DNA of 64,000 nucleotides from Vulcanimicrobiota bacterium (GCA_963805945.1 CAWDVP010000006.1:352001-416000); one strand, 5' to 3'; shown: positions 3,382-36,410, counted from the first letter of the stretch. Program-made: numbers and translations. Notes: a model not told the origin generated them from the sequence alone.

Positions 3382-4227
3382 ATGGATCACAGTCTCACGC
3401 GCCACCGGATGACCCGGAGATGCTTCCTGTGCGGGGCGCAAGGCGCCGCGCTCGCCGCCGGAGCTTTGCTCACTATGCCAGGCCTGGCGCTCGCAGACGA
3501 GCAGTCGCAGGAGCAGGCCATCGGCCAGCAGGTCTACGATCAACTGCGCAAGCAGGGTCAGATCGTCGACCGGTCACCGTACTACGCGGTGCTACGCTCG
3601 GTCGGGAAACGCATCTCCGACGCCGCACTGCCGCATTGGTACACGATGAAGTTCGTGGTGGTCAAGGGCGCTCAGGCGAATGCCTTTTCCGTGCCGGGCG
3701 GCTGGGTCTACGTGAACGAAGCGTTGCTGCGCCAATCGGAGGACCTCGACGAGCTGGCGAGCGTGCTCGGCCACGAGACCGGCCACATCGTCCTCGGCCA
3801 TGTCATGCAGCGCCTCAAGGACGCGCAGAACCTCAGCATCCTCTTCACCATCGGCAGCCTCCTCGTGCATAGCCAAAGCGCGGCGAACGTCTACAACATC
3901 GCGCAGCTCGGCGCCAACTACGGCTTCCTCAACTTCTCGCGGCAGCAGGAGTACCAAGCCGATCACGAGGGCGTGATACTCGCCGCCAAGGCCGCATACG
4001 ACCCCTGGGGCATGGTCTGGTTCTTCCAGAAACTCGAGGCGTTGTATGGCGATGTCGGTTTTGAGCAATACGTCCAGGACCACCCGTCCACCAAGGACCG
4101 CATCACGCGCATCGAGGCGTTCTTCAAGAGCGACCCTGCGACGTTCAGCCGCTGGCCCCAAACTCTCACCGCAAAACCCGGTCTGCCGCAGAACACGACT
4201 GACGACCAGCTCGTGCTGACTCCATAA
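3382..4227 (+). CDS. M48 family Zn metallopeptidase with Tat-like signal
   Basis: TRRCFL signal; NAFSVPGG, HETGH, SRQQEYQAD, HP motifs. Confidence 0.9.
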   Translation: MDHSLTRHRMTRRCFLCGAQGAALAAGALLTMPGLALADEQSQEQAIGQQVYDQLRKQGQIVDRSPYYAVLRSVGKRISDAALPHWYTMKFVVVKGAQANAFSVPGGWVYVNEALLRQSEDLDELASVLGHETGHIVLGHVMQRLKDAQNLSILFTIGSLLVHSQSAANVYNIAQLGANYGFLNFSRQQEYQADHEGVILAAKAAYDPWGMVWFFQKLEALYGDVGFEQYVQDHPSTKDRITRIEAFFKSDPATFSRWPQTLTAKPGLPQNTTDDQLVLTP

Positions 4228-4302: not shown

Positions 4303-4677
4303 CTACTTGATCTCGACCTTGGCGCCTTCGGCCTCGAGCTTGGCCTTGATCGCCTCGGCCTCTTCTTTGGTCGCGCCGGCCTTGACCGACTTGGGCGCGC
4401 CTTCCACCAGATCTTTGGCCTCTTTGAGACCCAAGCCCGGCACGACTTCGCGCACCACCTTGATCACGTTGATCTTCTTCTCGCCGGCTGCGAGCAGCAC
4501 GACGTCGAAGTCGGTCTTCGCCTCGACCGGAGCGGTGGCACCGCCGCCTGCGGCCGGCGCAGCCACTGCGACCGCCGCCGCGCTGACGCCGTATTTCTCC
4601 TCGAGCGCTTTGACCAGCTCGGCCAGTTCGAGGACCGTGATCTTGTCGATTTGATCGATGATATCTGTTATCGCCAT
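4303..4677 (-). CDS. rplL: 50S ribosomal protein L7/L12
   Basis: [22 protein letters not shown] signature. Confidence 0.98.
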
Positions 4678-4710
4678 GATAGAGTATCCGTTCCTTTCAT
4701 GCGGTCCTTG

Positions 4711-5244
4711 TCAGGCCGCTGGTTGATCTTCAGATTTCTTGCCGTGGATCGCATGCAAGAGCCGTACCAGTTTGCCGCGATTGCCGTTGAGCACGCCGTG
4801 CAGTCTGTACAGCGGCGATTTCAGGCTGCCGACGAGGGCTGCGAGCAGCTCTTGTCGACCGCGGATCTTCGAAAGCGCCAGCACTTCGGCCGCATCGAGA
4901 AATCGGCCGTCGACGAACGCCGCTTTGATCTGCAGCTTCTTCGAGTCGTTCGCGAACTTCGCGAGCGCCTTCGCCGCGAGCACCGGGTCGGACTCGACGA
5001 ACGCGACCGCCGTCGGGCCTTCGAGGACGCCCTTGAGCTGTTCGCGCTTCTCGTCACCGATGGCGATGCCGAAGAGCGTGTTCTTGACGACCGAGTAGCT
5101 CGCCGAATCTTTGCGCAACTCGTTGCGCAGCATGCGGAGCTCGCCCACCGTCAGGCCGCGGTAGTCCGTGAAGAACATGCTCGCTACCTTGGCAGCGCGC
5201 TCCCGCAGCGCGACGATCTCTGCGTCTTTCTTAGGGGTTGGCAT
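4711..5244 (-). CDS. rplJ: 50S ribosomal protein L10
   Basis: DYRGLTV..VVKNTL..GPTAVAF; start ATG 5244. Confidence 0.97.
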   Translation of the reverse strand: MPTPKKDAEIVALRERAAKVASMFFTDYRGLTVGELRMLRNELRKDSASYSVVKNTLFGIAIGDEKREQLKGVLEGPTAVAFVESDPVLAAKALAKFANDSKKLQIKAAFVDGRFLDAAEVLALSKIRGRQELLAALVGSLKSPLYRLHGVLNGNRGKLVRLLHAIHGKKSEDQPAA

Positions 5245-5301
5245 ATCTAGATTCACCTCCGATCGCTGCGTGGGACCCGAGCGTCGCTCGGGCACCACAT
5301 G

Positions 5302-5337
5302 AAAAGGCGCCCTCTCGAGTGTCTCGAGAAAGCGCTT
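5302..5337 (-). terminator. Attenuator-type terminator in rplJ leader
   Basis: mRNA AGCGCUUUCUCGAG-ACA-CUCGAGAGGGCGCC-UUUUC. Confidence 0.6.
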
Positions 5338-5351
5338 GGCGATCGAGGTGC

Positions 5352-5375
5352 CGGTCGAATGAATTCGACCGCTCC
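5352..5375 (-). repeat. REP-like hairpin, family A
   Basis: Plus strand CGGTCGAA-TGAA-TTCGACCG-CTCC. Confidence 0.85.
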
Positions 5376-5391
5376 AAAAGTCGCTTCGCTT

Positions 5392-5452
5392 CCTCGGCAG
5401 GCCCCTCGCGGGATTACCGCAGCCGGGGAGGGCTGCGACCTGCGGTCATCGG
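5392..5452 (-). promoter_or_regulatory. Ribosomal protein L10 leader
   Basis: mRNA CCGAUGACCGCAGGU...UAAUCC...CCUGCCGAGG resembles the L10 leader core; upstream of rplJ. Confidence 0.75.
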
Positions 5453-5458
5453 ACGCAT

Positions 5459-5482
5459 CGGTCGAATGAATTCGACCGCTAC
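5459..5482 (-). repeat. REP-like hairpin, family A
   Basis: Plus strand CGGTCGAA-TGAA-TTCGACCG-CTAC just downstream of rplA stop. Confidence 0.85.
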
Positions 5483-5489
5483 ATTTGTA

Positions 5490-6194
5490 CTAGGCGGCGG
5501 GCTCCGCTTTGAGCCTCGTCGGATCGATGCGGACACCCGGTCCCATCGTGCTGGTCAAGGTCACGCTCTTGAGATACGTACCCTTGGCCGATGCCGGCCT
5601 GGCCCGCACGATGGCGTCGGTGACGGCCGTGAGATTCTCCATGAGCGCTTCCTTGGAGAACGAGGCCTTGCCGACGATGCAGTGGATGTTCGCCGCCTTG
5701 TCCAGACGATATTCTACCTTACCGGCCTTGATCTCAGCAACCGCTTGTTTGATATTGAGCGTGACCGTCCCGACCTTCGGGTTGGGCATGCGCTGCGCGA
5801 GGATCTTGCCGAGGTTCGAGCCGACGGCGCCCATCATGTCCGGGGTGGCCACGGCGACGTCGAAATCGAGCCAGCCGCCCTTGATACGATCGATGAGGTC
5901 CTGGTCGCCGACGACGTCTGCGCCGGCCTCCTGAGCCTCCTTCGCCTTCTCGCCCTTGGCGAACACGACGACCTTCTTGGTCTGGCCTGTGCCGTGCGGC
6001 ATCACGACCGTGCCGCGCACGTTCTGCTCGGCCTTCTTCTGGTCGACGCCGAGCCGTACGTGCAATTCGATAGTCTCGTCGAACTTCGCCTTCGCGTTGG
6101 CTTTGACGAGCTCGACGGCGCGCGCCACGTCGACCGATCGCTCGTTTCCGAGCGCCTTCACGCTTTCGCGGTACTTCTTGCCTGGTTTTGCCAT
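5490..6194 (-). CDS. rplA: 50S ribosomal protein L1
   Basis: [35 protein letters not shown]. Confidence 0.98.
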
Positions 6195-6210
6195 GGTGTC
6201 TGACTCCTGC

Positions 6211-6239
6211 GTGGTGCGAGCGGCTTTCGGCCTCCCACG
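6211..6239 (-). promoter_or_regulatory. Putative L1 autogenous binding site upstream of rplA
   Basis: mRNA GUGGGAGG-CCGAAAGCC-GCUCGCACCAC internal-loop hairpin just before the rplA SD. Confidence 0.6.
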
Positions 6240-6254
6240 ATCTGGTTTTGTTAT

Positions 6255-6278
6255 GGAGCGGTCGAATTTATTCGACCG
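6255..6278 (+). repeat. REP-like hairpin, family A
   Basis: GGAG-CGGTCGAA-TTTA-TTCGACCG abutting the rplK TGA. Confidence 0.85.
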
Positions 6279-6701
6279 TCAACCGACCTCGATGCCCATC
6301 GAGCGCGCCGTGCCGGCGACGATCTTCGCCGCCGCGTCGATGTCGTTGGCGTTGAGGTCGACCATCTTCATCTTGGCGATCTCGCGGCATTTCTCCATCG
6401 AGATCTTGCCGACTTTCTTGCGATTGGGCTCGCCCGAGCCCTTTTCGACGCCCGCGGCCTTTTTGATCAGCTCGGACGCCGGCGGCGTCTTGAGGATGAA
6501 CGTGAACGAACGGTCCTCGAACACCGTGATGACGGCGGGGATGATCTGGCCCTTCTGATTGGCGGTGCGTTCGTTGTACGCCTTACAGAACTCCATGATG
6601 TTGATGCCGTGCTGGCCCAGCGCAGGGCCGACGGGCGGCGCTGGCGTAGCGGCGCCGGCCGAACATTGGAGCGTGATCTTCGCGATGACCTTTTTTGCCA
6701 C
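6279..6701 (-). CDS. rplK: 50S ribosomal protein L11
   Basis: [15 protein letters not shown] signature. Confidence 0.98.
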
Positions 6702-6704
6702 GAT

Positions 6705-7304
6705 CTATACCTTTTCGACCTGATAGAATTCGAGCTCGACCGGCGTCTCCCGGCCGAAGATCGAGATGAGCGCGCGCAGACGCTCTTTGGTGGGATCGAT
6801 CTCATCCACCGTGCCGGTGAAGTCGAAGAACGGTCCCGAGGTGACCTTGACGCGATCGCCTTTGGCGAAATCGATCTTGAGCTTGGGCGTCTCGATGCCC
6901 ATCTGCTTGAGGATCGTCTTGACCTCTTTGTCCACCAGCGGCAGCGGCTTCTCGCCGGAGCCCGGCGAGCCGACGAAGCCGGTCACGCCCTGCGTGTTGC
7001 GGACGACGTACCACGACTGGTCGGTCATCTTCATCTCGACCAGGACGTAGCCGGGATACACCTTCTTCTCGACCTCTTTGCGCTTGCCGTCCTTGAACTC
7101 GACCTCTTTGTCCGTCGGCACGAGCACGCGGTACACGAAGTCCTGCATGCTCATCGACTTGATGCGCCGCTCGAGATTCGCCTTGACCTTGTTCTCGTAG
7201 CCCGAATACGTGTGCACCACGTACCATTTGCGGTCCGGGTCGTCCGGCGTGGCGAGCAGATCGTCGAGATCGGCCGCCGCGGCCTGCTGCTGTGTTTCTT
7301 CCAT
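6705..7304 (-). CDS. nusG: Transcription termination/antitermination factor NusG
   Basis: WYVVHTYSGYENKV; KOW domain; IFGRETPVELE. Confidence 0.98.
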   Translation of the reverse strand: MEETQQQAAAADLDDLLATPDDPDRKWYVVHTYSGYENKVKANLERRIKSMSMQDFVYRVLVPTDKEVEFKDGKRKEVEKKVYPGYVLVEMKMTDQSWYVVRNTQGVTGFVGSPGSGEKPLPLVDKEVKTILKQMGIETPKLKIDFAKGDRVKVTSGPFFDFTGTVDEIDPTKERLRALISIFGRETPVELEFYQVEKV

Positions 7305-7308
7305 AGCG

Positions 7309-7599
7309 CTAGCTCGGCAACCTGAAGATCCACTGCACGAGATTGCTGATGAGCGACGTCCAGATCGCCACCACGGCGACGAGCCCCAGCGTGATGAGCG
7401 TCGCCGAGACCCACTCCTCGCGGCTGGGCCATGTGACGCGTTTCATCTCGGACACGACTGCGCGGTATCCGTCGGACAAGCGCCGCCACTGGCGCTCGCG
7501 TTCGACGACGCGCGTCTGGTCGGCCTTATCCTTCTCTTTCGCCGCGGGCTTCGCATCGACGTCGTCGATGGGTCTGCCGGGGGCCGTGATTCGCTTCAT
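7309..7599 (-). CDS. secE: Preprotein translocase subunit SecE
   Basis: EMKRVTWPSREE plus TM; synteny tRNA-Trp/secE/nusG. Confidence 0.92.
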   Translation of the reverse strand: MKRITAPGRPIDDVDAKPAAKEKDKADQTRVVERERQWRRLSDGYRAVVSEMKRVTWPSREEWVSATLITLGLVAVVAIWTSLISNLVQWIFRLPS

Positions 7600-7612
7600 C
7601 TCTTCCTTTGGT

Positions 7613-7636
7613 CGGTCGAATACATTCGACCGCTAC
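7613..7636 (-). repeat. REP-like hairpin, family A
   Basis: Plus strand CGGTCGAA-TACA-TTCGACCG-CTAC. Confidence 0.85.
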
Positions 7637-7651
7637 ATGCTCTCGAGGATC

Positions 7652-7727
7652 TGGCAGGGCGGACAGGACTCGAACCTGCAACCAACGGTTTTGGAGACCG
7701 CTACTCTACCAATTGAGCTACCGCCCT
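7652..7727 (-). tRNA. tRNA-Trp(CCA)
   Basis: 76-nt cloverleaf, anticodon CCA, encoded 3' CCA. Confidence 0.97.
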
Positions 7728-7728
7728 A

Positions 7729-7893
7729 TTAGCGCGTCTCTTTGTGGGCCGTATGGCACTTGCACCAGCGGCAGTACTTCTTGAGCTCCAGCCGCGCGCT
7801 CGTGTGCTGCCGGTTCTTCATCGTCGTGTAGTTGCGCCGTTTGCAGTCGCCGCACGCGAGCGTGACGATCACCCTGTTCTCCTTTTTGGCCAT
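7729..7893 (-). CDS. rpmG: 50S ribosomal protein L33 (Zn-binding form)
   Basis: Below ORF-track cutoff; [24 protein letters not shown]...[20 protein letters not shown]. Confidence 0.97.
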
Positions 7894-7899
7894 CGACGC

Positions 7900-9093
<1,194 letters not shown>

Positions 9094-9129
9094 GGTTGTT
9101 CTTATGATTCCCTTCGCCGAACGCTAAAA

Positions 9130-28924: not shown

Positions 28925-29572
28925 CTAGTAGAGCTCGACTTCGCTCAGGTTCTTCTCGATCTTGCGCTTGACGCGCTGCAGCGCGTTGTCGATCGACTTC
29001 ACGTGTCGATTGAGATCGCGCGCCATCTCCTGGTACGACTTGCCCTCGAGATAGCTCAGCAGCACCTGCGACTCGAGATCGCTCAGGTTCTCCTGGATGC
29101 GCTCTTTGATGTCTTCCGAAACTTCCTGGTTGATGACCAGCTCTTCGGGATCCGACATCTTCGCGCTCGCCATGACGTCGAGCAGCGTGCGCTCGCTATC
29201 CTCGTCGTAGATCGGCTTGTTGAGCGAGATGTACTGGTTGAGCGGGATGTGCTTCTGCCGCGTGGCCGTCTTGATGGCCGTGATGATCTGCCGCGTGATG
29301 CACAGCTCGGCGAAGGCGCGGAACGACGACAGCTTGTCCGCCCGGAAGTCGCGCACGGCCTTATAGAGGCCGATCATGCCTTCCTGGATGATGTCTTCGC
29401 GGTCTGCGCCGATGAGGAAGTAGCTTTTCGCCTTGATGCGGACGAAGTTCTTATACTTGTTGAGCAGGAATTCCATGGCGAGATTGTCGCCACACTTCGC
29501 TGCGTTGACGAGTTCTTCGTCGGCTCGCTCGCTGTAGTCCAAGGTCTCTTCTGTCTGATGAAGTGCCGCCAA
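28925..29572 (-). CDS. sigH: RNA polymerase sigma factor SigH
   Basis: YFLIGADREDIIQEGMIGL, TATRQKHIPLN, KSIDNALQRVKRK; synteny with rlmB. Confidence 0.95.
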   Translation of the reverse strand: MAALHQTEETLDYSERADEELVNAAKCGDNLAMEFLLNKYKNFVRIKAKSYFLIGADREDIIQEGMIGLYKAVRDFRADKLSSFRAFAELCITRQIITAIKTATRQKHIPLNQYISLNKPIYDEDSERTLLDVMASAKMSDPEELVINQEVSEDIKERIQENLSDLESQVLLSYLEGKSYQEMARDLNRHVKSIDNALQRVKRKIEKNLSEVELY

Positions 29573-29632
29573 GTTGTGGGTGAACCCCCGATCCTAATCT
29601 GTGAACATTATGCCTGCGTTATGCCCCTACCG

Positions 29633-29661
29633 ATTATAGGGGGAGGCACCTCTTTCGTCAA
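29633..29661 (-). promoter_or_regulatory. SigA-type promoter of sigH
   Basis: TTGACG-N17-TATAAT. Confidence 0.8.
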
Positions 29662-29668
29662 GGATTCA

Positions 29669-30451
29669 TTAGGTTTTATGAGGCTTTGCGCTCGTGCCGG
29701 ATTTCACAAGCTCGTCGCGCTGGCGGACCACTTCATAGAGCACGACCGCACCTGCGACGGCCGCGTTCAGGGATGCGACTTTTCCCCGCATGGGGATCGA
29801 GACCAGGTGATCGCAGTGCTCGGAGACCAGGCGCGACAAGCCTTTGCCCTCGGCGCCGACCACCAAAGTGGTCTTGCCCCTGAAATCGACCCCCGTGTAG
29901 GCGACCGAGCCTGGCCCTGCGGCGAGGCCGGTAACCCATTGGCCGTCTTCTTTGAGGTCTTTCAGGGCCCTCACCAAATTCGGGACGCGGCAGACGGCCA
30001 AGTGGGAGGCTGCTCCGGCGGCTGCACGGCGGGTCGACGCCGTGACGCCCGCGCTGCGCCGGTCGGGGATTATCATCGCGTGGGCCCCGGCGCTTTCGGA
30101 AGCTCGCATCAGCGAGCCGAGATTCTGCGGATCTTCTATGTGGTCGGCGACGACGACGAGCGCATCCGCGGTCGCCGCGAGCCGGCGACGCGTCTCCGGC
30201 CAATCGGCATAGCCGAACTCCGGCAGCGTGGCCGCGACGTGCTGATGGCGCGCGGCGCCGAAGCGCCGGAACCACGCCTCAGGCTCGATGCGCACCGGGA
30301 TGCCGCGGCGCTTGCTCGCTTCGACGATTTCTTTGAGGGCGGCGTCATGCTCGCGATGGCGTGCGATAGTGACGGCGCGCAGCGCTTCGCCGCCGGCGAG
30401 CGCTTCCGACACCGGATGGATGCCGACGATCGTCTCCTCATCGGCCGCCAT
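29669..30451 (-). CDS. rlmB: 23S rRNA (G2251-2'-O)-methyltransferase
   Basis: DPQNLG, GAEGKG, IPMRGKVASLNAAVA SPOUT motifs. Confidence 0.93.
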   Translation of the reverse strand: MAADEETIVGIHPVSEALAGGEALRAVTIARHREHDAALKEIVEASKRRGIPVRIEPEAWFRRFGAARHQHVAATLPEFGYADWPETRRRLAATADALVVVADHIEDPQNLGSLMRASESAGAHAMIIPDRRSAGVTASTRRAAAGAASHLAVCRVPNLVRALKDLKEDGQWVTGLAAGPGSVAYTGVDFRGKTTLVVGAEGKGLSRLVSEHCDHLVSIPMRGKVASLNAAVAGAVVLYEVVRQRDELVKSGTSAKPHKT

Positions 30452-31871
30452 CGACGCTCCACTCCGAGCCTTTAGCGGTGTCTTTGACCGCCACGCCAGC
30501 GCGCGCGAGCGCGTCGCGCAACTCGTCGGACTTCGCCCAGTCCTTTGCCGTGCGCGCTGCGGTCCGCCGCGCGACGACCCGCTCGACCAGCGCGGCGTCG
30601 CCGGCGACATCTTCACCTGCGGCAGCGACGAGCGCGGCGCGGTCCGCTGCGCTGAGGTGCAGCTCGGCAGCAGGCTGGGCCACCCCGGCGCTCTGCGCGT
30701 CCGGCGGCAGACCCAGGATGCGCAGGCATCGTTCGACCGCGACGGTATCAGCGCGCCCCGACTTGACGTACGTCTGCAGCCAGCCGACCGCCCCCGCGGT
30801 GTTGAGGTCGTTGTCGAGGTGCTCGCCGAACTCGGCGGGCACGGCGGCGCGCTCGACGTCGGTCGGCCGCTCCATCGAGTTCTTGAGCGCGGCGAGGTCG
30901 GCATATAATCCGCGCAGACCTTTTGCCGCCGCGTCGATCGACTCGGCGGTGAAGTTCGTCGGCTTGCGATAGCCGGTCTGCAAGAACAGGTAGCGGATGA
31001 CCGCCGCCGGGTAGCGGTCGAGCATCTGCGACAGCGGCGTGAAGTTGCCGAGCGATTTGCTCATCTTCTGTCCGTCGACGTTGAGCAATCCGGCGTGGAC
31101 CCAATACACCGCCATGGGATGCTTGCCGGTGAAACTCTCCGTCTGCGCGACCTCGTTCTCATGATGCGGGAAGATGAGGTCGGCGGCGCCGCCGTGGATG
31201 TCGATCTGATCGCCGAGAAAGCGCCGCGACATCGCCGAGCACTCGATGTGCCAGCCGGGTCTGCCCGGACCCCATGGGCTGGGCCAAGTCGGCTCGCCCG
31301 GTTTCGCCTTCTTCCACAGCGCGAAGTCGAGCCGGCCGCGCTTCTCCTCGCGCACCGCCATGCGCACGCCCGCGCGCAGCTCGTCGATGCTCTGATGGCT
31401 CAGCTCGCCGTAGCGGGGAAACACGCCTTCGTCCACCGCGAAATAGACGCCGTCGCCGGATTCGTAGGCGGCGCCCTTGCCGACCAGCCCCGCGATGATC
31501 TCTATAATGGAAGACATCTCGTGCGTGGCACGTGGTTCGACGTCCGGGGGCGTGAGGCCGAGCCGCTTAGCGCAGGCCTCATAGTCCGCGAGGTAGCGGT
31601 CCACGATCGCGTCCCAGGACACTCCCTCTTGGGCGGCACGGTCGATGATGCGGTCGTCGATGTCGGTGACGTTCTGCACGTAGGTGACGACGTAACCACG
31701 CTCGCTAAGCCAGCGCCGCAGCACGTCGAAGGTGAGAAAGGTTCGCGCGTGACCGAGATGCGGGAAGAAACTCGGCGTCATGCCGCAGACGTACATCGTC
31801 ACGCGGCCCGGGTGCAGCGGCCGGAACTCTTCGAGCGCGCTGGTCCGGCTGTTATAGAGTCTTAGTGCCAT
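30438..31871 (-). CDS. cysS: Cysteine--tRNA ligase
   Basis: [26 protein letters not shown]. Confidence 0.97.
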
Positions 31872-32527
31872 CCGGCTCTTCGGACTGACGCAAGCGCGCC
31901 TCGAGCGCTTCGACGCGCTGCTGCAGCCGCACGATCGCATCGCCCTCCGGATCCGGCATATCGACGCGCGGCAGGACCGGCTCGACGTGTTTGCCGTCCT
32001 GGAAGATGATGTGGCCCGGCACGCCGACGACGGTGCAGTTCGGCGGCACCGATTTCACCACGACGGCGCCCGCTGCGATCTTCGAGCCCGCGCCCGACGA
32101 CGATCGCGCCGATGATGCCGGCGCCCGCGCCGACCACGACGTTGTTCTCGAGGGTCGGATGCCGCTTGCCGCGCTGCAGCGACGTGCCGCCAAGGGTCAC
32201 GCCTTGATACAGCGTGCAGTTGCGGCCGATCTCCGCCGTCTCGCCGATGACGACGCCGGTGCCGTGATCGATGAAGAGCCCGCTGCCGATCTCCGCGCCC
32301 GGGTGGATCTCGATGCCGGTGAGAAAACGCGACCAATTCGAGAGGACGCGCGGCAGCACGGGCACGTGCATGAGATAGAGCGGATGGATGACCAGCCGAT
32401 GCCAGAACAGCGCATGGAAGCCGGGGTACGCGAGTAGCACCTCGAGCCCGTTGCGCGCCGCGGGGTCGCGCTCGAAGACCGCGCGCCAATCGAGGTGGAT
32501 CTGCCGGAAAATCGAGTCTCGCTGCAT
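31852..32527 (-). CDS. cysE: Serine O-acetyltransferase (apparent 1-bp insertion near 32093)
   Basis: [33 protein letters not shown]; continues [25 protein letters not shown] in shifted frame. Confidence 0.93.
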
Positions 32528-32596
32528 GAGGGGTGTCCTGCTAAGGGGCTTCTGGAGTGCGCGCAGCGGGCGCGCGACCGGTCGGGTGGGCGCCGG

Positions 32597-32629
32597 TCAA
32601 CAACAACAGCAGGACGAGGCGAGAGACAT
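32597..32629 (-). CDS. Poly-cysteine leader peptide MSLASSCCCC (putative cysE-cysS attenuator)
   Basis: ATG TCT CTC GCC TCG TCC TGC TGT TGT TGT TGA, 69 nt upstream of cysE; GTCCTGCT complementary to SD-containing AGCAGGAC. Confidence 0.85.
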   Translation of the reverse strand: MSLASSCCCC

Positions 32630-32641
32630 GATGACAATGGG

Positions 32642-32668
32642 TTCGCGCGTGAGGCAGGGCCGCCCTTC
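32642..32668 (-). promoter_or_regulatory. Possible alternative-sigma (SigH-like) promoter for leader-cysE
   Basis: GAAGG-N17-GCGAA, 12 nt before the leader ATG. Confidence 0.45.
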
Positions 32669-32671
32669 GGG

Positions 32672-34192
32672 TCACGCTTGGGAGAGCGCCGAGCGGATGC
32701 GTGAAGCCACCCGCGCCGGCCCGAGCAGCGGCAGCAGCAGCGGCAACTCGATGCCATGCTCCTCGCCCGTCACGGCGATGCGGATCGGGCGGAACAGCGC
32801 GCGTCCTTTGACGCCGTGTTTCGCGCCGAGCGCAGCGAGCGCTTCCTTTGATGCGGCCTTGGTCAACGCGCCGCGGTCGGCGGACGCCTCCGCAATCGTC
32901 GCAAGCTCTTCGACCAGCGCGCGCGCGACCGGACCGGCGAGCGCGTCCTTCGCGTCGGGCTCGATCGCCACATCGCTTGTGAGCAGCGCGGCGGCGAGCG
33001 CCGGCACCTGGCTCAGGATCTCCACGTGGTCGGTCAGCGCGTCTGCGAGCAGCGCCCGCCATTGCGGATCCTGCATATCCGCGCTCGCGGCGACGGTCGC
33101 GTCGCGGGCGGCCCACTGCGCGAACAGCGCGGCGCGCTCGTCACGTGGCAGCGAGCGCAGATAGTGCGCGTTGAACCAGCGCAGTTTGCCTTGGTCGAAC
33201 ACCGCCGGGCTCTTGCTGACCCGTTCGAGCGAGAAGTTCTCCGCTAGCTCGGAGAGGCTGAAGAACTCCCGGTCGTCGCCGGGCGACCAGCCGAGCAGCG
33301 CGAGATAGTTGATCATCGCGGCCGGCAGATAGCCTTGCTCGCGATACTCCGCGACCGACGTCGCGCCATGCCGCTTCGACAGCTTTTGATGGTCCGGCGC
33401 CAGGATCATCGACACGTGCGCGAAGAGCGGCAGCGGCAGCTCCAGCGCCTCATACAGCACGACCTGGCGCGGCGTGTTCGGCAGGTGTTCGTCGCCCCGG
33501 ATCACGTGCGTGATCGCCATCTCGGCGTCATCCACGACCGCGGCGAAGTTGTACGCCGGACCGCCGTCGGACTTCATGATCACGAAATCGCCGATCGATC
33601 CCGCGGGGAAATGCACGGAGCCGCGCACCACGTCTTCGACGAAGATGTCGCGCTCGGGCATGAGAAACCGCACGGCCGGTTTGCGGCCTTGCGCGTCGAG
33701 CGCGGCGCGCTGTTCGCGCGTCAGGTCGCGGCACGTGCCCGCGTAGCGCGGCGTCACGCCGGCGCGCTCCGCCGCCGCTCGCTGCGCCTCGAGCTCTTCA
33801 AGCGTGCAGTAGCAGAGGTATGCCCGCTCGCTCTCCAGCAGTCGCGCTGCCGCAAGACCATAGCGGTCGGTCCGATCGGTCTGACGGTACGGCGCGTACG
33901 GACCGCCGACATCGGTGCCCTCGTCCCACGACAGGCCGAGCCAGCGCAGATCGTCTTGGATCACCCGCTCCGATTCGAGCGACGAGCGCGCGGCGTCCGT
34001 GTCCTCCGATCGAAGCACCAACGCGCCGCCATTGCGGCGCGCGAAGAGATAATTGAAGAGCGCGGTGCGCGCGCCGCCCACATGGAGCGATCCGGTGGGT
34101 GCGGGAGCGAACCGGACGCGGACGGGACCCGAGCTTCGCTCGGGCACGGTCGAGTAAACTCGACCGCTCCATTCCGGGTTGCGCTCGGACAT
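32672..34192 (-). CDS. gltX: Glutamate--tRNA ligase
   Basis: VRVRFAPAPTGSLHVG, ITHVIRGDEH, KLSKR; ATG overlaps ispF stop. Confidence 0.97.
   Translation of the reverse strand: MSERNPEWSGRVYSTVPERSSGPVRVRFAPAPTGSLHVGGARTALFNYLFARRNGGALVLRSEDTDAARSSLESERVIQDDLRWLGLSWDEGTDVGGPYAPYRQTDRTDRYGLAAARLLESERAYLCYCTLEELEAQRAAAERAGVTPRYAGTCRDLTREQRAALDAQGRKPAVRFLMPERDIFVEDVVRGSVHFPAGSIGDFVIMKSDGGPAYNFAAVVDDAEMAITHVIRGDEHLPNTPRQVVLYEALELPLPLFAHVSMILAPDHQKLSKRHGATSVAEYREQGYLPAAMINYLALLGWSPGDDREFFSLSELAENFSLERVSKSPAVFDQGKLRWFNAHYLRSLPRDERAALFAQWAARDATVAASADMQDPQWRALLADALTDHVEILSQVPALAAALLTSDVAIEPDAKDALAGPVARALVEELATIAEASADRGALTKAASKEALAALGAKHGVKGRALFRPIRIAVTGEEHGIELPLLLPLLGPARVASRIRSALSQA
34147..34170 (-). 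repeat. REP-like hairpin, family A variant, inside gltX 5' coding region
   Basis: Plus strand CGGTCGAGT-AA-ACTCGACCG-CTCC. Confidence 0.8.
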
Positions 34193-34665
34193 CACAGGTC
34201 TTCCACAGTGGCGACTGCGTACGCGGCCATGCCGTCGCCGCTGCCGGTGAAACCGAGCCCCTCAGTGCGTTTCGCTTTGACGCTGCAGCGATCGAGGTCG
34301 ACGCCGAGCACCCCCGCCAGCTTCGTGCGCATCGTTCCCAGATATGCAAGCAGCGCCGGCTGTTCGGCGACGATGGTGCAATCGACGTTGCCGACGCGGA
34401 AGCCCGCGGCTCGCACGATGACGACGGCCTCCCCGAGCAGTTTCACGCTGTCGGCGCCGGCGTAGCGCGGATCGCCCGCGGGGAAGCGCGAGCCGCAATC
34501 GCCGAGCGCGGCGGCCCCGAGCACCGCGTCGATGATCGCATGTGCGACCACGTCCGCGTCCGAGAAGCCTTCCAATCCGCGCTCGAACGGGATCCGGCAC
34601 CCGCCCAAGATGAGCGGCCGGCCCGGGACCAAGCGGTGGGCGTCAAAACCGAACCCGATCCTCAT
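34192..34665 (-). CDS. ispF: 2-C-methyl-D-erythritol 2,4-cyclodiphosphate synthase
   Basis: [31 protein letters not shown]. Confidence 0.95.
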
Positions 34666-35356
34666 CGCCCCACCCTCTCCGACTGCGCGACGACGAAGCC
34701 GCGCGTACTCGAGGTCGTCCGGCGTGGTGATCTTCATGTTGTCGTATGTACCCATCACGAGTGCCACAGGCGCGACCGAGGCGCTCCACCAGCATGGCGT
34801 CGTCGGTCGCCGCCGGACCTGCGTCGCCGCCTTTGGCGTGCGCGGCGAGCAGCAGCTCGTAGGCGAACACCTGCGGCGTCTGCGCGGACCACAGCCCCTC
34901 GCGCGGTATGGTGTGCTCGATCGTGTCCGCCGGCGTCCCCTGCTTGATCGTGTCCTTCACGGGCACGGCGGCGATCGCGGCGCCGCTGCCGCGCGCCGCC
35001 GCCGCGACACGTTCGATCAGCTCGGGCGTGACGAACGGCCGGGCGCCGTCGTGCACGAGCACGTAGTCGGGGGCCGGTGCGATGGCCGACAGCGCGGCGT
35101 ACACGGAGGCTTGTCTGGTCGCGCCGCCGGCGACCACCGCGCGCGACTTGAGCGGCGCGAACGCCGCGGCGAGCGTTTGAAAGCGCTCGCGCTGCTCCTC
35201 TTCGCACGCGATGTAGATGCCGTCCACGCACGCCGCGCGCTCCAGCGTCTCAAGCGCCCATGCGGCGAGCGGCTTGCCGCCCAGATCGAGCAGCTGCTTG
35301 GCCTGGCCGAGCCGATCGCCGCGGCCGGCCGCCGCGAGGATGGCGACGAGCGTCAT
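34662..35356 (-). CDS. ispD: 2-C-methyl-D-erythritol 4-phosphate cytidylyltransferase (frameshift near 34770; 3' end uncertain)
   Basis: [28 protein letters not shown] then [10 protein letters not shown] in another frame. Confidence 0.9.
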
Positions 35357-36410
35357 GGCTTCTTCGGCTTCGCGAAGATCATGCGCCCCGCCGCCGTCTG
35401 CAGCACCGAGGTGACCTGCACGCCGACGGTCTCGCCCATCAGCTTGCGGCCGTTCTCGACCACGATCATCGTGCCGTCGTCGAGATAACCGACGCCTTGG
35501 TTCTGCTCCTTGCCGTCCTTGACGATGTTGCACCGCCATCTCTTCGCCGGGCAGCACGACGGGCTTGATCGCGTTCGCCAATTCGTTGACGTTGAGGATG
35601 GTGACGCCTTGCAGTCTGGCGACGCGGTTGAGGTTGTAGTCGTTGGTGAGGATCGGCGCGTCCATCTGGCGGGCGAGGCGTGACGAGCTTGCTGTCGACG
35701 TCGCGCTCCGGCGCGTCCTGCTCGATGATCTCGAGCCGGCCGGACGCCTCGCGCAGCCGGTTGAGGATCTCGAGGCCCCTGCGGCCGCGCGCGCGGCGCA
35801 TCGAGTCGGCCGAATCGGCGATCAACTGCAGCTCCTTCAGCACGAACTTTGGCACGAGCAGGCGCCCCTCGATGAAGCCCGCCTGCACGACCTCGAGCAG
35901 GCGTCCGTCGACGATGACGGAGGTGTCGAGCAGCTTCGGCGGCGCTGCGCCGTCGTGCGGTCCGCTCTTCATCCAACTGCTCAAGCGCTGCCGCAGCCCG
36001 ATGCGGATGCCCGTGTAAGCGAAGAACAGCGTGATGAGCGCGTAGATGATCACCGAGATCAACGCGCCGAAACGCGGTATCTGTCGGACCGGCTGGAACA
36101 CGTCGCGAACGAGATAGGCGACGAGCAGCCCCACCACGAGACCGATCGCGCCGGAGAGCGCCTCGGCAGGCGCCATCTTCACGATCGCTTCTTCTAGGGA
36201 GCTCGAGATGCGTTCGAAGCCGGCGGCGACGAACGGCGACACCGCGATGCCGATAGCAGCGAAGAGCACGGGCAGGCCGATGTCGCGCAGCGGCGGCGTC
36301 ACGCCGAACTGAGCGAGCAAAGGCACGTGCTGCGCCAGCTCGATCCCCGCGGCCAAGCCGAGCAATCCGCACAACAGCGCGAAGATGATCCTAAGTAGTA
36401 ATCGTCCCAA
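35353..36410 (-). CDS. PIN/TRAM domain membrane protein (YacL-like), frameshifts near 35680 and 35533
   Basis: [51 protein letters not shown] spread over three frames. Confidence 0.9.

Follow-up and report, generated by a model that had tools for sequence, protein, structure and literature searches.

In a stretch of DNA of 64,000 nucleotides (nt) from a Vulcanimicrobiota bacterium (GCA_963805945.1 CAWDVP010000006.1:352001-416000, here called the window), the gap between gltX and cysE holds a ten-codon short open reading frame (sORF) that ends in four cysteine codons and whose 3' part is complementary to the Shine-Dalgarno (SD) region of cysE. Based on this arrangement, its recurrence in three further genomes, and predicted folds, we consider the leader to be a candidate ribosome-mediated translational attenuator that would sense charged tRNA-Cys, a reading to which we give a probability of roughly two in three. 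The gap is 144 nt long (32528-32671) and is flanked by the genes for glutamate-tRNA ligase (gltX) and serine O-acetyltransferase (cysE), the latter being followed by the gene for cysteine-tRNA ligase (cysS). The element is found before the very genes whose product it would sense. Vulcanimicrobiota is the NCBI name for Eremiobacterota, and the best CysE, GltX, and CysS matches are to records labelled Vulcanimicrobiota, Candidatus Eremiobacteraceae, and Candidatus Acidiferrales.

All parts of the element lie on the minus strand. The sORF occupies positions 32597-32629, with its ATG at 32629-32627 and its TGA at 32599-32597, and encodes MSLASSCCCC. An earlier prediction for this DNA (hereafter the original prediction) had given the same frame, and every letter and coordinate was confirmed. 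The four tandem Cys codons, TGC TGT TGT TGT (32600-32611), are the putative sensing codons and form the only run of four in the six frames of the 64 kb. Overlapping the start of this run is the anti-SD arm, GUCCUGCU(G) in the RNA and GTCCTGCTG as DNA (32615-32607), which spans the last base of a Ser codon, UCC (Ser), UGC (the first Cys), and the UG of the second Cys codon. Its partner, the SD arm (U)AGCAGGAC, which reads TAGCAGGAC as DNA (32543-32535), holds the cysE Shine-Dalgarno motif AGGA (32539-32536), 8 nt before the cysE ATG at 32527-32525. The complementarity of the two arms, likewise part of the original prediction, holds base for base. The sORF stop and the cysE ATG are 69 nt apart on the same strand, and the spacer contains two small hairpins: hairpin 1 (32576-32598), which begins within the sORF stop codon and pairs GACCGG (32598-32593) with CCGGTC (32581-32576), and hairpin 2 (32559-32575), GCGCGC-CCGCT-GCGCGC, with arms at 32575-32570 and 32564-32559.

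The model that we propose builds on the only conserved content of the putative leader peptide, namely its C-terminal Cys run followed by UGA. The G-UCC-UGC-U at the start of this run would act as an anti-SD sequence by pairing with GCAGGAC at the cysE ribosome-binding site. When Cys-tRNA is plentiful, ribosomes would traverse the sORF and leave at UGA, the helix would re-form, and cysE would be poorly translated; expression of cysS would then probably be low too, via its overlap with cysE. When Cys-tRNA is scarce, a translating ribosome would wait at the Cys codons, which are mostly the rare, wobble-read UGU, and would hold the anti-SD in its mRNA channel. The cysE SD would thereby be set free, allowing both CysE and the Cys-tRNA ligase to be made.

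The recurrence of the element in related genomes carries much of the argument. One scan of genome contigs with CysE was made, 80 cysE loci were fetched, and the 500 nt upstream of cysE were inspected in each. The gene upstream is gltX in 5 of the 80 loci, and cysS lies downstream in 14. A run of at least three Cys codons that ends at the stop, at most 500 nt upstream of cysE, occurs in only three of the fetched loci, L001, L002, and L003. These are the three closest loci that keep the order gltX-cysE-cysS, and all three leaders stop at UGA. A looser filter for Cys leaders flagged 14 of the 80 loci, among which no locus besides these three ends a run of at least three Cys codons at the stop (L033, L080, and L055 being weak cases). 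The counterpart peptides, MAFATSCCC in L001, (MLHERS)MSPLILFQSCRCCC in L002, and MTMVTRLIHEYCPGCCCLCKSCCCC in L003, end in three to four Cys before the stop. An in-frame ATG is present in all four leaders, and the L003 leader has 9 Cys in 25 codons. In the rest of the peptide, the leaders differ both in length (9, 10, 14-20, and 22-26 codons) and in every residue before the final S-C...C, and peptides so unrelated outside the Cys run fit a product that needs only to be translated. The four gaps are barely alignable except for the pair formed by the window and L001 (57% mean column identity), and their invariant columns cluster on GTCCTGC, on the following TGTTG.TG, and on the cysE start. In the comparison of relatives' gltX-cysE gaps that had been suggested together with the original prediction, the terminal Cys run, the UGA, and the anti-SD/SD pair therefore all recur in the three closest syntenic loci.

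The pairing between the two arms was tabulated by a script anchored on the invariant heptamers GUCCUGC and GCAGGAC. MAFFT misaligned the SD arms of L002 and L003, and hence neither an alignment-based pair count nor a covariance model was used. The seven core pairs GUCCUGC/GCAGGAC are identical in the four genomes, and the flanking pairs differ. At position +7, the window and L003 have U:A, L002 has C:G with both sides changed, and L001 has a U-C mismatch. Position -1 is C:G in L001, A:U in L003, and mismatched in the window and L002, and the window helix gains a G:U pair at +8. Through these differing flanks, a continuous Watson-Crick helix of 8, 8, 8, and 9 base pairs (bp) is kept across the four genomes. 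The helix opens with a G at the third position of a codon, and this base stays the same although the encoded residue is Ser, Thr, Gln, or Lys depending on the genome, which indicates that the RNA, and not the peptide, is what is constrained.

The anti-SD/SD pair closes a loop of 45-86 nt that holds one or two GC-rich hairpins, and a GC-rich hairpin directly follows the sORF stop in every one of the four genomes. The two hairpins proposed to fold the spacer and bring the arms together are indeed present in the window and are shared with its nearest relative, L001, but L002 and L003 have other hairpins in their place. Just upstream of the sORF, CGCGCGA (32643-32649) is the exact complement of UCGCGCG (32571-32577), the 5' arm of hairpin 2. 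An alternative pairing could form here, and the upstream block is kept in L001 but not in L002 or L003. L001 also has an AT-rich insert with a perfect TATAAT between hairpin 2 and the cysE SD arm (L001:3945-3985). As for L002, which carries the clearest compensatory change, it is labelled Candidatus Acidiferrales (Acidobacteriota), yet its CysE is 80% identical to that of the window and its gene order is the same gltX-cysE-cysS; either the bin carries a wrong label or the element spans more than one phylum.

Partition-function folding of the RNA from the sORF start to cysE +18 predicts that the helix dominates the ensemble. The core pairs have probabilities of 0.96-1.00 in all four genomes, and the probability that the AGGA is unpaired is 0.000-0.003 (0.003 in the window). 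When a 27-nt ribosome footprint is masked, with either the first or the last Cys codon in the A site, the latter probability rises to 0.27-0.72. As a control, seven other window genes have SD-like motifs whose probability of being unpaired is 0.20-0.67 in the same kind of fold, against the 0.003 of the cysE AGGA. A coarse control over positions -13 to -6 separated cysE only weakly from the rest, as it ranked second lowest and then lowest of 13 genes, and the motif-centred control is the clearer one. Folding with and without the footprint had been put forward as a check, and the predicted helix opened when masked. The notion of an sORF whose 3' part hides the cysE SD until a stalled ribosome exposes it is supported in every respect that could be tested.

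The Cys codons themselves are also unusual. In the long frames of the window, the genes use TGC 102 times and TGT 6 times (6/108, 5.6%), and in the relatives' genes the counts are 54 and 7 (7/61). TGT nevertheless makes up three of the four Cys codons of the window leader, seven of the eight codons formed by the last two Cys of each leader, and 9 of the 20 Cys codons in the four leaders overall. One tRNA-Cys, with the anticodon GCA, reads both UGC and UGU, the latter by wobble. The rare UGU may sensitise the pause, or it may keep the stretch weakly structured. The helix takes up UCC-UGC and no more than one or two bases beyond it. The other Cys codons follow on its 3' side, yet they remain Cys while alternating between the synonymous TGT and TGC. 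The Ser codons, which had been suggested as a possible second input, do not behave in this way: the four leaders contain 3, 1, 2, and 1 of them, and only the UCC within the anti-SD is conserved. As regards Cys runs elsewhere, the other 11 three-codon runs in the window lie in another frame or on the opposite strand at places with long frames (compared by eye), and the extra runs in L001-L003 amount to one in another frame at the 3' end of the L003 gltX and one on the L003 minus strand. A Pfam scan of 38 window frames gave no match to a family of sulfur metabolism.

In Bacillus subtilis, a Cys T-box is found at the gltX-cysE position, and the original prediction held that the leader stands in place of such an element. 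In searches with the T-box family RF00230, the window had no match that reached the gathering score, positions 32300-32900 had none at E<=10, and L001-L003 and L005 had none at E<=1; no other Rfam family was found in the gap, the window, L001-L003, or L005, apart from a match to sX9 in 32300-32900 at the chance level of E=2. The same model scored 105-112 bits just upstream of cysE in L021, L042, and L067, which are 3 of the 17 other loci searched and serve as positive controls. L021 and L042 are Sporosarcina gltX-cysE-cysS loci with the T-box in the gltX-cysE gap, and in L021 the triplet aligned at the specifier position reads UGC (alignment read by eye). The proposed covariance search thus finds no T-box in the window or its closest relatives, and it does find one in the same gap in two Sporosarcina loci.

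The absence of a U-tract terminator was likewise borne out for the window, where no terminator-like site was found in 32300-33000. None was found in the L001 or L003 leaders either, the one hit in L003 being inside gltX. L002 alone has a terminator-like hairpin (L002:3941-3968), which begins 2 nt past the sORF stop and in which a stem of seven pairs with a tetraloop (3941-3958) is followed by a T-rich tail. This hints that L002 may add a transcriptional layer. One might go further and suppose that the Cys-codon sORF governs intrinsic or Rho-dependent termination, or polarity on untranslated cysE, with SD masking being secondary. A stalled ribosome would overlap the 5' arm of the L002 hairpin, and the GC-rich hairpins directly after the stop in the other genomes could be seen in the same light. 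There are also precedents: one report suggests Rho-dependent termination for terminator-less Cys leaders of Actinobacteria (Seliverstov et al., PMC1262725), and another describes a terminator-type Cys upstream ORF (uORF) before cysS in Rhodobacterales (Brewer et al., PMC8632094). However, three of the four leaders lack a terminator-like site, the feature conserved in all four is the anti-SD/SD pair and not a terminator, and a transcriptional reporter for the analogous element of Mycobacterium smegmatis did not respond to cysteine (Canestrari et al. 2020, 10.1101/834739). We therefore consider transcriptional control unlikely to be the main mechanism.

The start of the sORF is less easily explained than its end. 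The block directly 5' of it, ACGCGCGAACCCATTGTCATC (32630-32650, minus strand), is kept in the alignment with L001 and contains neither an SD-like motif nor a promoter-like site. No sigma-70-like promoter site was found in any of the four gaps, with a consensus that may not be that of the phylum, and no conserved -10-like hexamer at the right distance for a leaderless start was seen by eye. In the window, the gltX stop is TGA 32674-32672 and the sORF ATG follows 42 nt further on; in L001, L002, and L003 the corresponding distances from the preceding same-strand stop are 62, 17 (or 35), and 25 nt. With no promoter detected and the sORF always 17-62 nt behind a same-strand gene, the idea of a leaderless transcript found no support. 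A start without an SD is not odd in this genome, because several well-defined genes (nusG, rpe, gltX, and, at normal spacing, tuf) have no SD-like motif, although rplJ, degV, and rplA have GCAGGAG, and because SD motifs are little enriched at candidate starts in the window (0.10 vs 0.08 in a rough count). Ribosomes that terminate on the preceding gene may go on to enter the sORF. This preceding gene is not gltX in L001 but a small ORF of about 100 codons inserted between gltX and the leader (L001:3498-3808), which has a strong SD and a weak match to an SMP-30/gluconolactonase-like repeat (E=0.007).

The lack of an SD and of a detectable promoter would also suit an alternative in which the helix is fixed or controlled in some other way and nothing is sensed by the sORF. 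Such a helix might keep cysE translation at a low constitutive level, mark a site of RNA processing or stability between gltX and cysE, or bind a factor, with the Cys codons as a by-product of constraints on the sequence. The UCC-UGC part of the Cys run is indeed explained by the anti-SD itself, and open frames and start codons come easily in DNA of 65% GC. On the other hand, pairing has no need of the Cys codons 3' of the helix, whose identity is nonetheless preserved through synonymous changes. These codons always reach the UGA within one to four codons, the ATG is in frame in every genome, L003 has its nine Cys codons, and the element precedes exactly the genes whose product it would sense. 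Taken together, these observations make a helix without a sensor, to our minds, slightly less probable still than transcriptional control. A functional Cys-rich micropeptide, for example a metal-binding or redox-active one whose position before cysE would be incidental or related to supply, is much harder to defend: it would account for the Cys-rich C-terminus conserved in all four genomes, but its length and all its non-Cys residues vary freely, and no function of the peptide explains the invariant third-position G or the matching SD arm.

Several points weigh against the attenuator that we favor. The comparative set consists of four genomes only, which are homologous and hence not independent; the window and L001 are nearly identical across the element, and relative to the window there is just one fully compensatory change (U:A to C:G). 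In L005, a Candidatus Cybelea locus of the same phylum, cysE-cysS stands behind a different gene, without gltX and without a Cys leader, and neither a Cys leader nor a T-box was found before cysE-cysS there (L005:3900-4000). The masked SD is still mostly paired in three of the four genomes (probability unpaired of about 0.3). Moreover, masking of the anti-SD is no less effective when the ribosome is placed at the stop codon, and the signal would therefore have to be dwell time and not position. The sORF lacks an SD-like motif in all four genomes, the search for promoter-like sites gave nothing, and cysE itself is frameshifted in this assembly, so the regulated gene may be broken or mis-sequenced. 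The individual parts, taken by themselves, also do not exceed chance. A four-codon Cys run is not significant alone (0.11 expected; 10 of 100 window shuffles give at least one), and the whole gap folds no better than shuffled sequences (z=0.04; 98 of 200 fold as well), for which reason overall fold stability was dropped as evidence. When the 33-nt sORF of the window was shuffled and an 8-bp match was sought in the 20 nt before cysE, 104 of 2000 dinucleotide shuffles matched the observed duplex length, and the corresponding counts were 2/2000 for L001, 51/2000 for L002, and 5/2000 for L003. What lifts the element above chance is its position before cysE and its conservation with covariation in the relatives. 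While the shuffles would allow a CTG/TGC-type low-complexity run and an 8-nt complement to meet by accident in GC-rich DNA, the element occurs at the same place in three further genomes with otherwise hardly alignable gaps and is absent from the other 77 loci, and coincidence is thus the explanation that we find least credible.

The mechanism proposed here is already known; what sets the element apart is the phylum, the internal position in a gene row with no sign of a leaderless start, and a target that includes the Cys-tRNA ligase. For Ms5788A, a leaderless sORF of M. smegmatis, mutagenesis by Canestrari et al. 2020 (10.1101/834739) showed that its C-terminal polycysteine tract base-pairs with the SD region of the gene that follows, and control was regained with compensatory mutations. 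This control is translational, the transcriptional reporter mentioned above is insensitive to cysteine, and there is no terminator; the further loci listed by these authors include Rv2334A before cysK1-cysE of M. tuberculosis. Two recent papers on M. tuberculosis take Cys attenuators as established (PMC13096801, PMC13236596). The element described here resembles Ms5788A and Rv2334A in having a short unannotated ORF that ends in a Cys run, an sORF 3' end that pairs with the next SD, and no terminator, as well as in the proposed release of the SD by a stalled ribosome and in targets that belong to cysteine metabolism and include cysE. Of the features by which Ms5788A-type leaders can be recognized, the element has at least two terminal Cys codons, a position directly upstream of cysteine genes, and predicted pairing between the sORF and the SD. 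Unlike Ms5788A, the element belongs to Vulcanimicrobiota/Eremiobacterota and not to Actinomycetota, shows no sign of homology to it, and is a prediction from sequence. Its sORF is embedded in a row of same-strand genes, 17-62 nt past the previous stop, its anti-SD is the UCC-UGC junction and not the whole Cys tract, and its target includes Cys-tRNA ligase.

Other systems share only some of these properties. The Cys T-box of Bacillales, represented by the Sporosarcina loci L021 and L042, has the same position in a conserved ispD-gltX-cysE-cysS-rlmB row, responds to the same signal of tRNA-Cys charging, and acts on the same genes, but it binds the tRNA directly and controls a terminator, whereas the leader would read charging through the ribosome. 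The Rhodobacterales element uORFC-8-2 (PMC8632094) is likewise a tandem-Cys uORF before a Cys-tRNA ligase gene with ribosome stalling as the proposed sensor. Its two Cys codons, around positions 14-15, lie inside a stem, and its control is transcriptional through a U-run terminator. In contrast, the Cys run described here is C-terminal, no U-run is present in three of the four genomes, and the SD is masked. The terminator after the leader that is typical of trp/his-type attenuators and of uORFC-8-2 is accordingly missing from the window, L001, and L003 and found only in L002. The Cys leader peptides without terminators that were predicted before cys and cbs operons of Mycobacterium, Propionibacterium acnes, and Bifidobacterium longum are similar in that a short ORF upstream of the operon carries a run of Cys codons close to its stop, and a terminator is not obvious; they are confined to Actinobacteria, and Rho was suggested as one possible mechanism (PMC1262725). 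Finally, in ermC and cat leaders the downstream SD is likewise buried in a hairpin, which is remodelled by a ribosome arrested in the leader ORF, but arrest there depends on a drug and on the nascent peptide, whereas here it would follow a shortage of one charged tRNA. The full-text literature, with subscription journals and supplements lying outside it, yielded no such element beyond Actinobacteria and Rhodobacterales, and none in Eremiobacterota.

The surrounding genes form a minus-strand row of ispD, gltX, cysE, cysS, and rlmB, and beyond rlmB are a sigma-factor gene, nusG, rplK, rplA, rplJ, rplL, and tuf. The order from ispD to tuf is one known from Bacillus. In the window, this Bacillus-like long-range order is spread over 4303-9123 and 28925-35665, with tuf nearby and with ABC-transporter genes and genes of no family intervening. 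The window has six tRNA genes, and tRNA-Cys is not among them. The gene upstream of the leader, gltX (32672-34192, minus strand; TIGR00464, E=2.4e-151), has two start candidates, ATG 34192 and GTG 34195. Three ORFs that overlap the gap (32388-33164 on the plus strand, and 32197-32757 and 32541-33116 on the minus strand) matched no Pfam family and were treated as spurious.

The cysE gene (31852-32527, minus strand) starts at ATG 32527, and its canonical frame ends with TAA at 31854-31852. Compared with L001, L002, and L003, it has one extra nucleotide near 32092 (about 32088-32095, in the GGGCGCGGGC stretch) that shifts the frame. After approximately codon 146, the resulting 221-codon ORF runs into an Arg/Ala-rich out-of-frame tail and ends at 31862, and the canonical continuation (...TKTL and stop) is found in another frame, ending at 31852. 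It is because of this frameshift that CysE scores below the TIGR01172 cut-off. The extra base is either a sequencing or assembly error or the mark of a real pseudogene. The next gene, cysS (30438-31871, minus strand; TIGR00435, E=1.7e-135), probably starts at ATG 31871 (MALRLYNS...), and the CysS proteins of the relatives align from query residue 20-21. This start overlaps the canonical end of cysE by 20 nt, and translational coupling of cysS to cysE is therefore plausible, judging from the arrangement of the two frames. Further downstream, the rlmB ORF (29669-30904, minus strand) is open for 411 codons, of which only those from residue 157 match the RlmB family. The SD-preceded ATG at 30451 suits the start of this match better, and the long N-terminal part, which overlaps the 3' end of cysS, is probably non-coding.

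Polycysteine-sORF attenuation has been reported mainly in mycobacteria, the only group in which it is known to have been demonstrated, and is tied there to leaderless mRNAs. The candidate described here is analogous but apparently non-homologous and belongs to a lineage of soil bacteria in an almost uncultured phylum. Against this background, we put forward a broader proposal that we would bet neither on nor against: the ancient gltX-cysE-cysS row of Vulcanimicrobiota/Eremiobacterota would be under the control not of the T-box known from Firmicutes but of a polycysteine leader that arose independently and buries the cysE SD, with the rare UGU as a sensitising device. No translational Cys attenuator of this type would have been known before from outside Actinobacteria, and the element would also be the first to work from an internal position without an SD, perhaps fed by ribosomes that finish gltX, and the first to place an aminoacyl-tRNA synthetase under a leader that masks an SD. 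If this is true, ribosome-read control of cysteine genes can arise repeatedly, with no need for a leaderless start, and, at one and the same genomic position, a T-box and a leader peptide are two alternative ways of coupling cysE and cysS to tRNA-Cys charging. It would also mean that unannotated ten-codon ORFs in metagenome-assembled genomes can be assigned a function without leaving the sequence, and it would provide a small element of 120 nt for studying how codon rarity, UGU vs UGC, tunes a stalling sensor.

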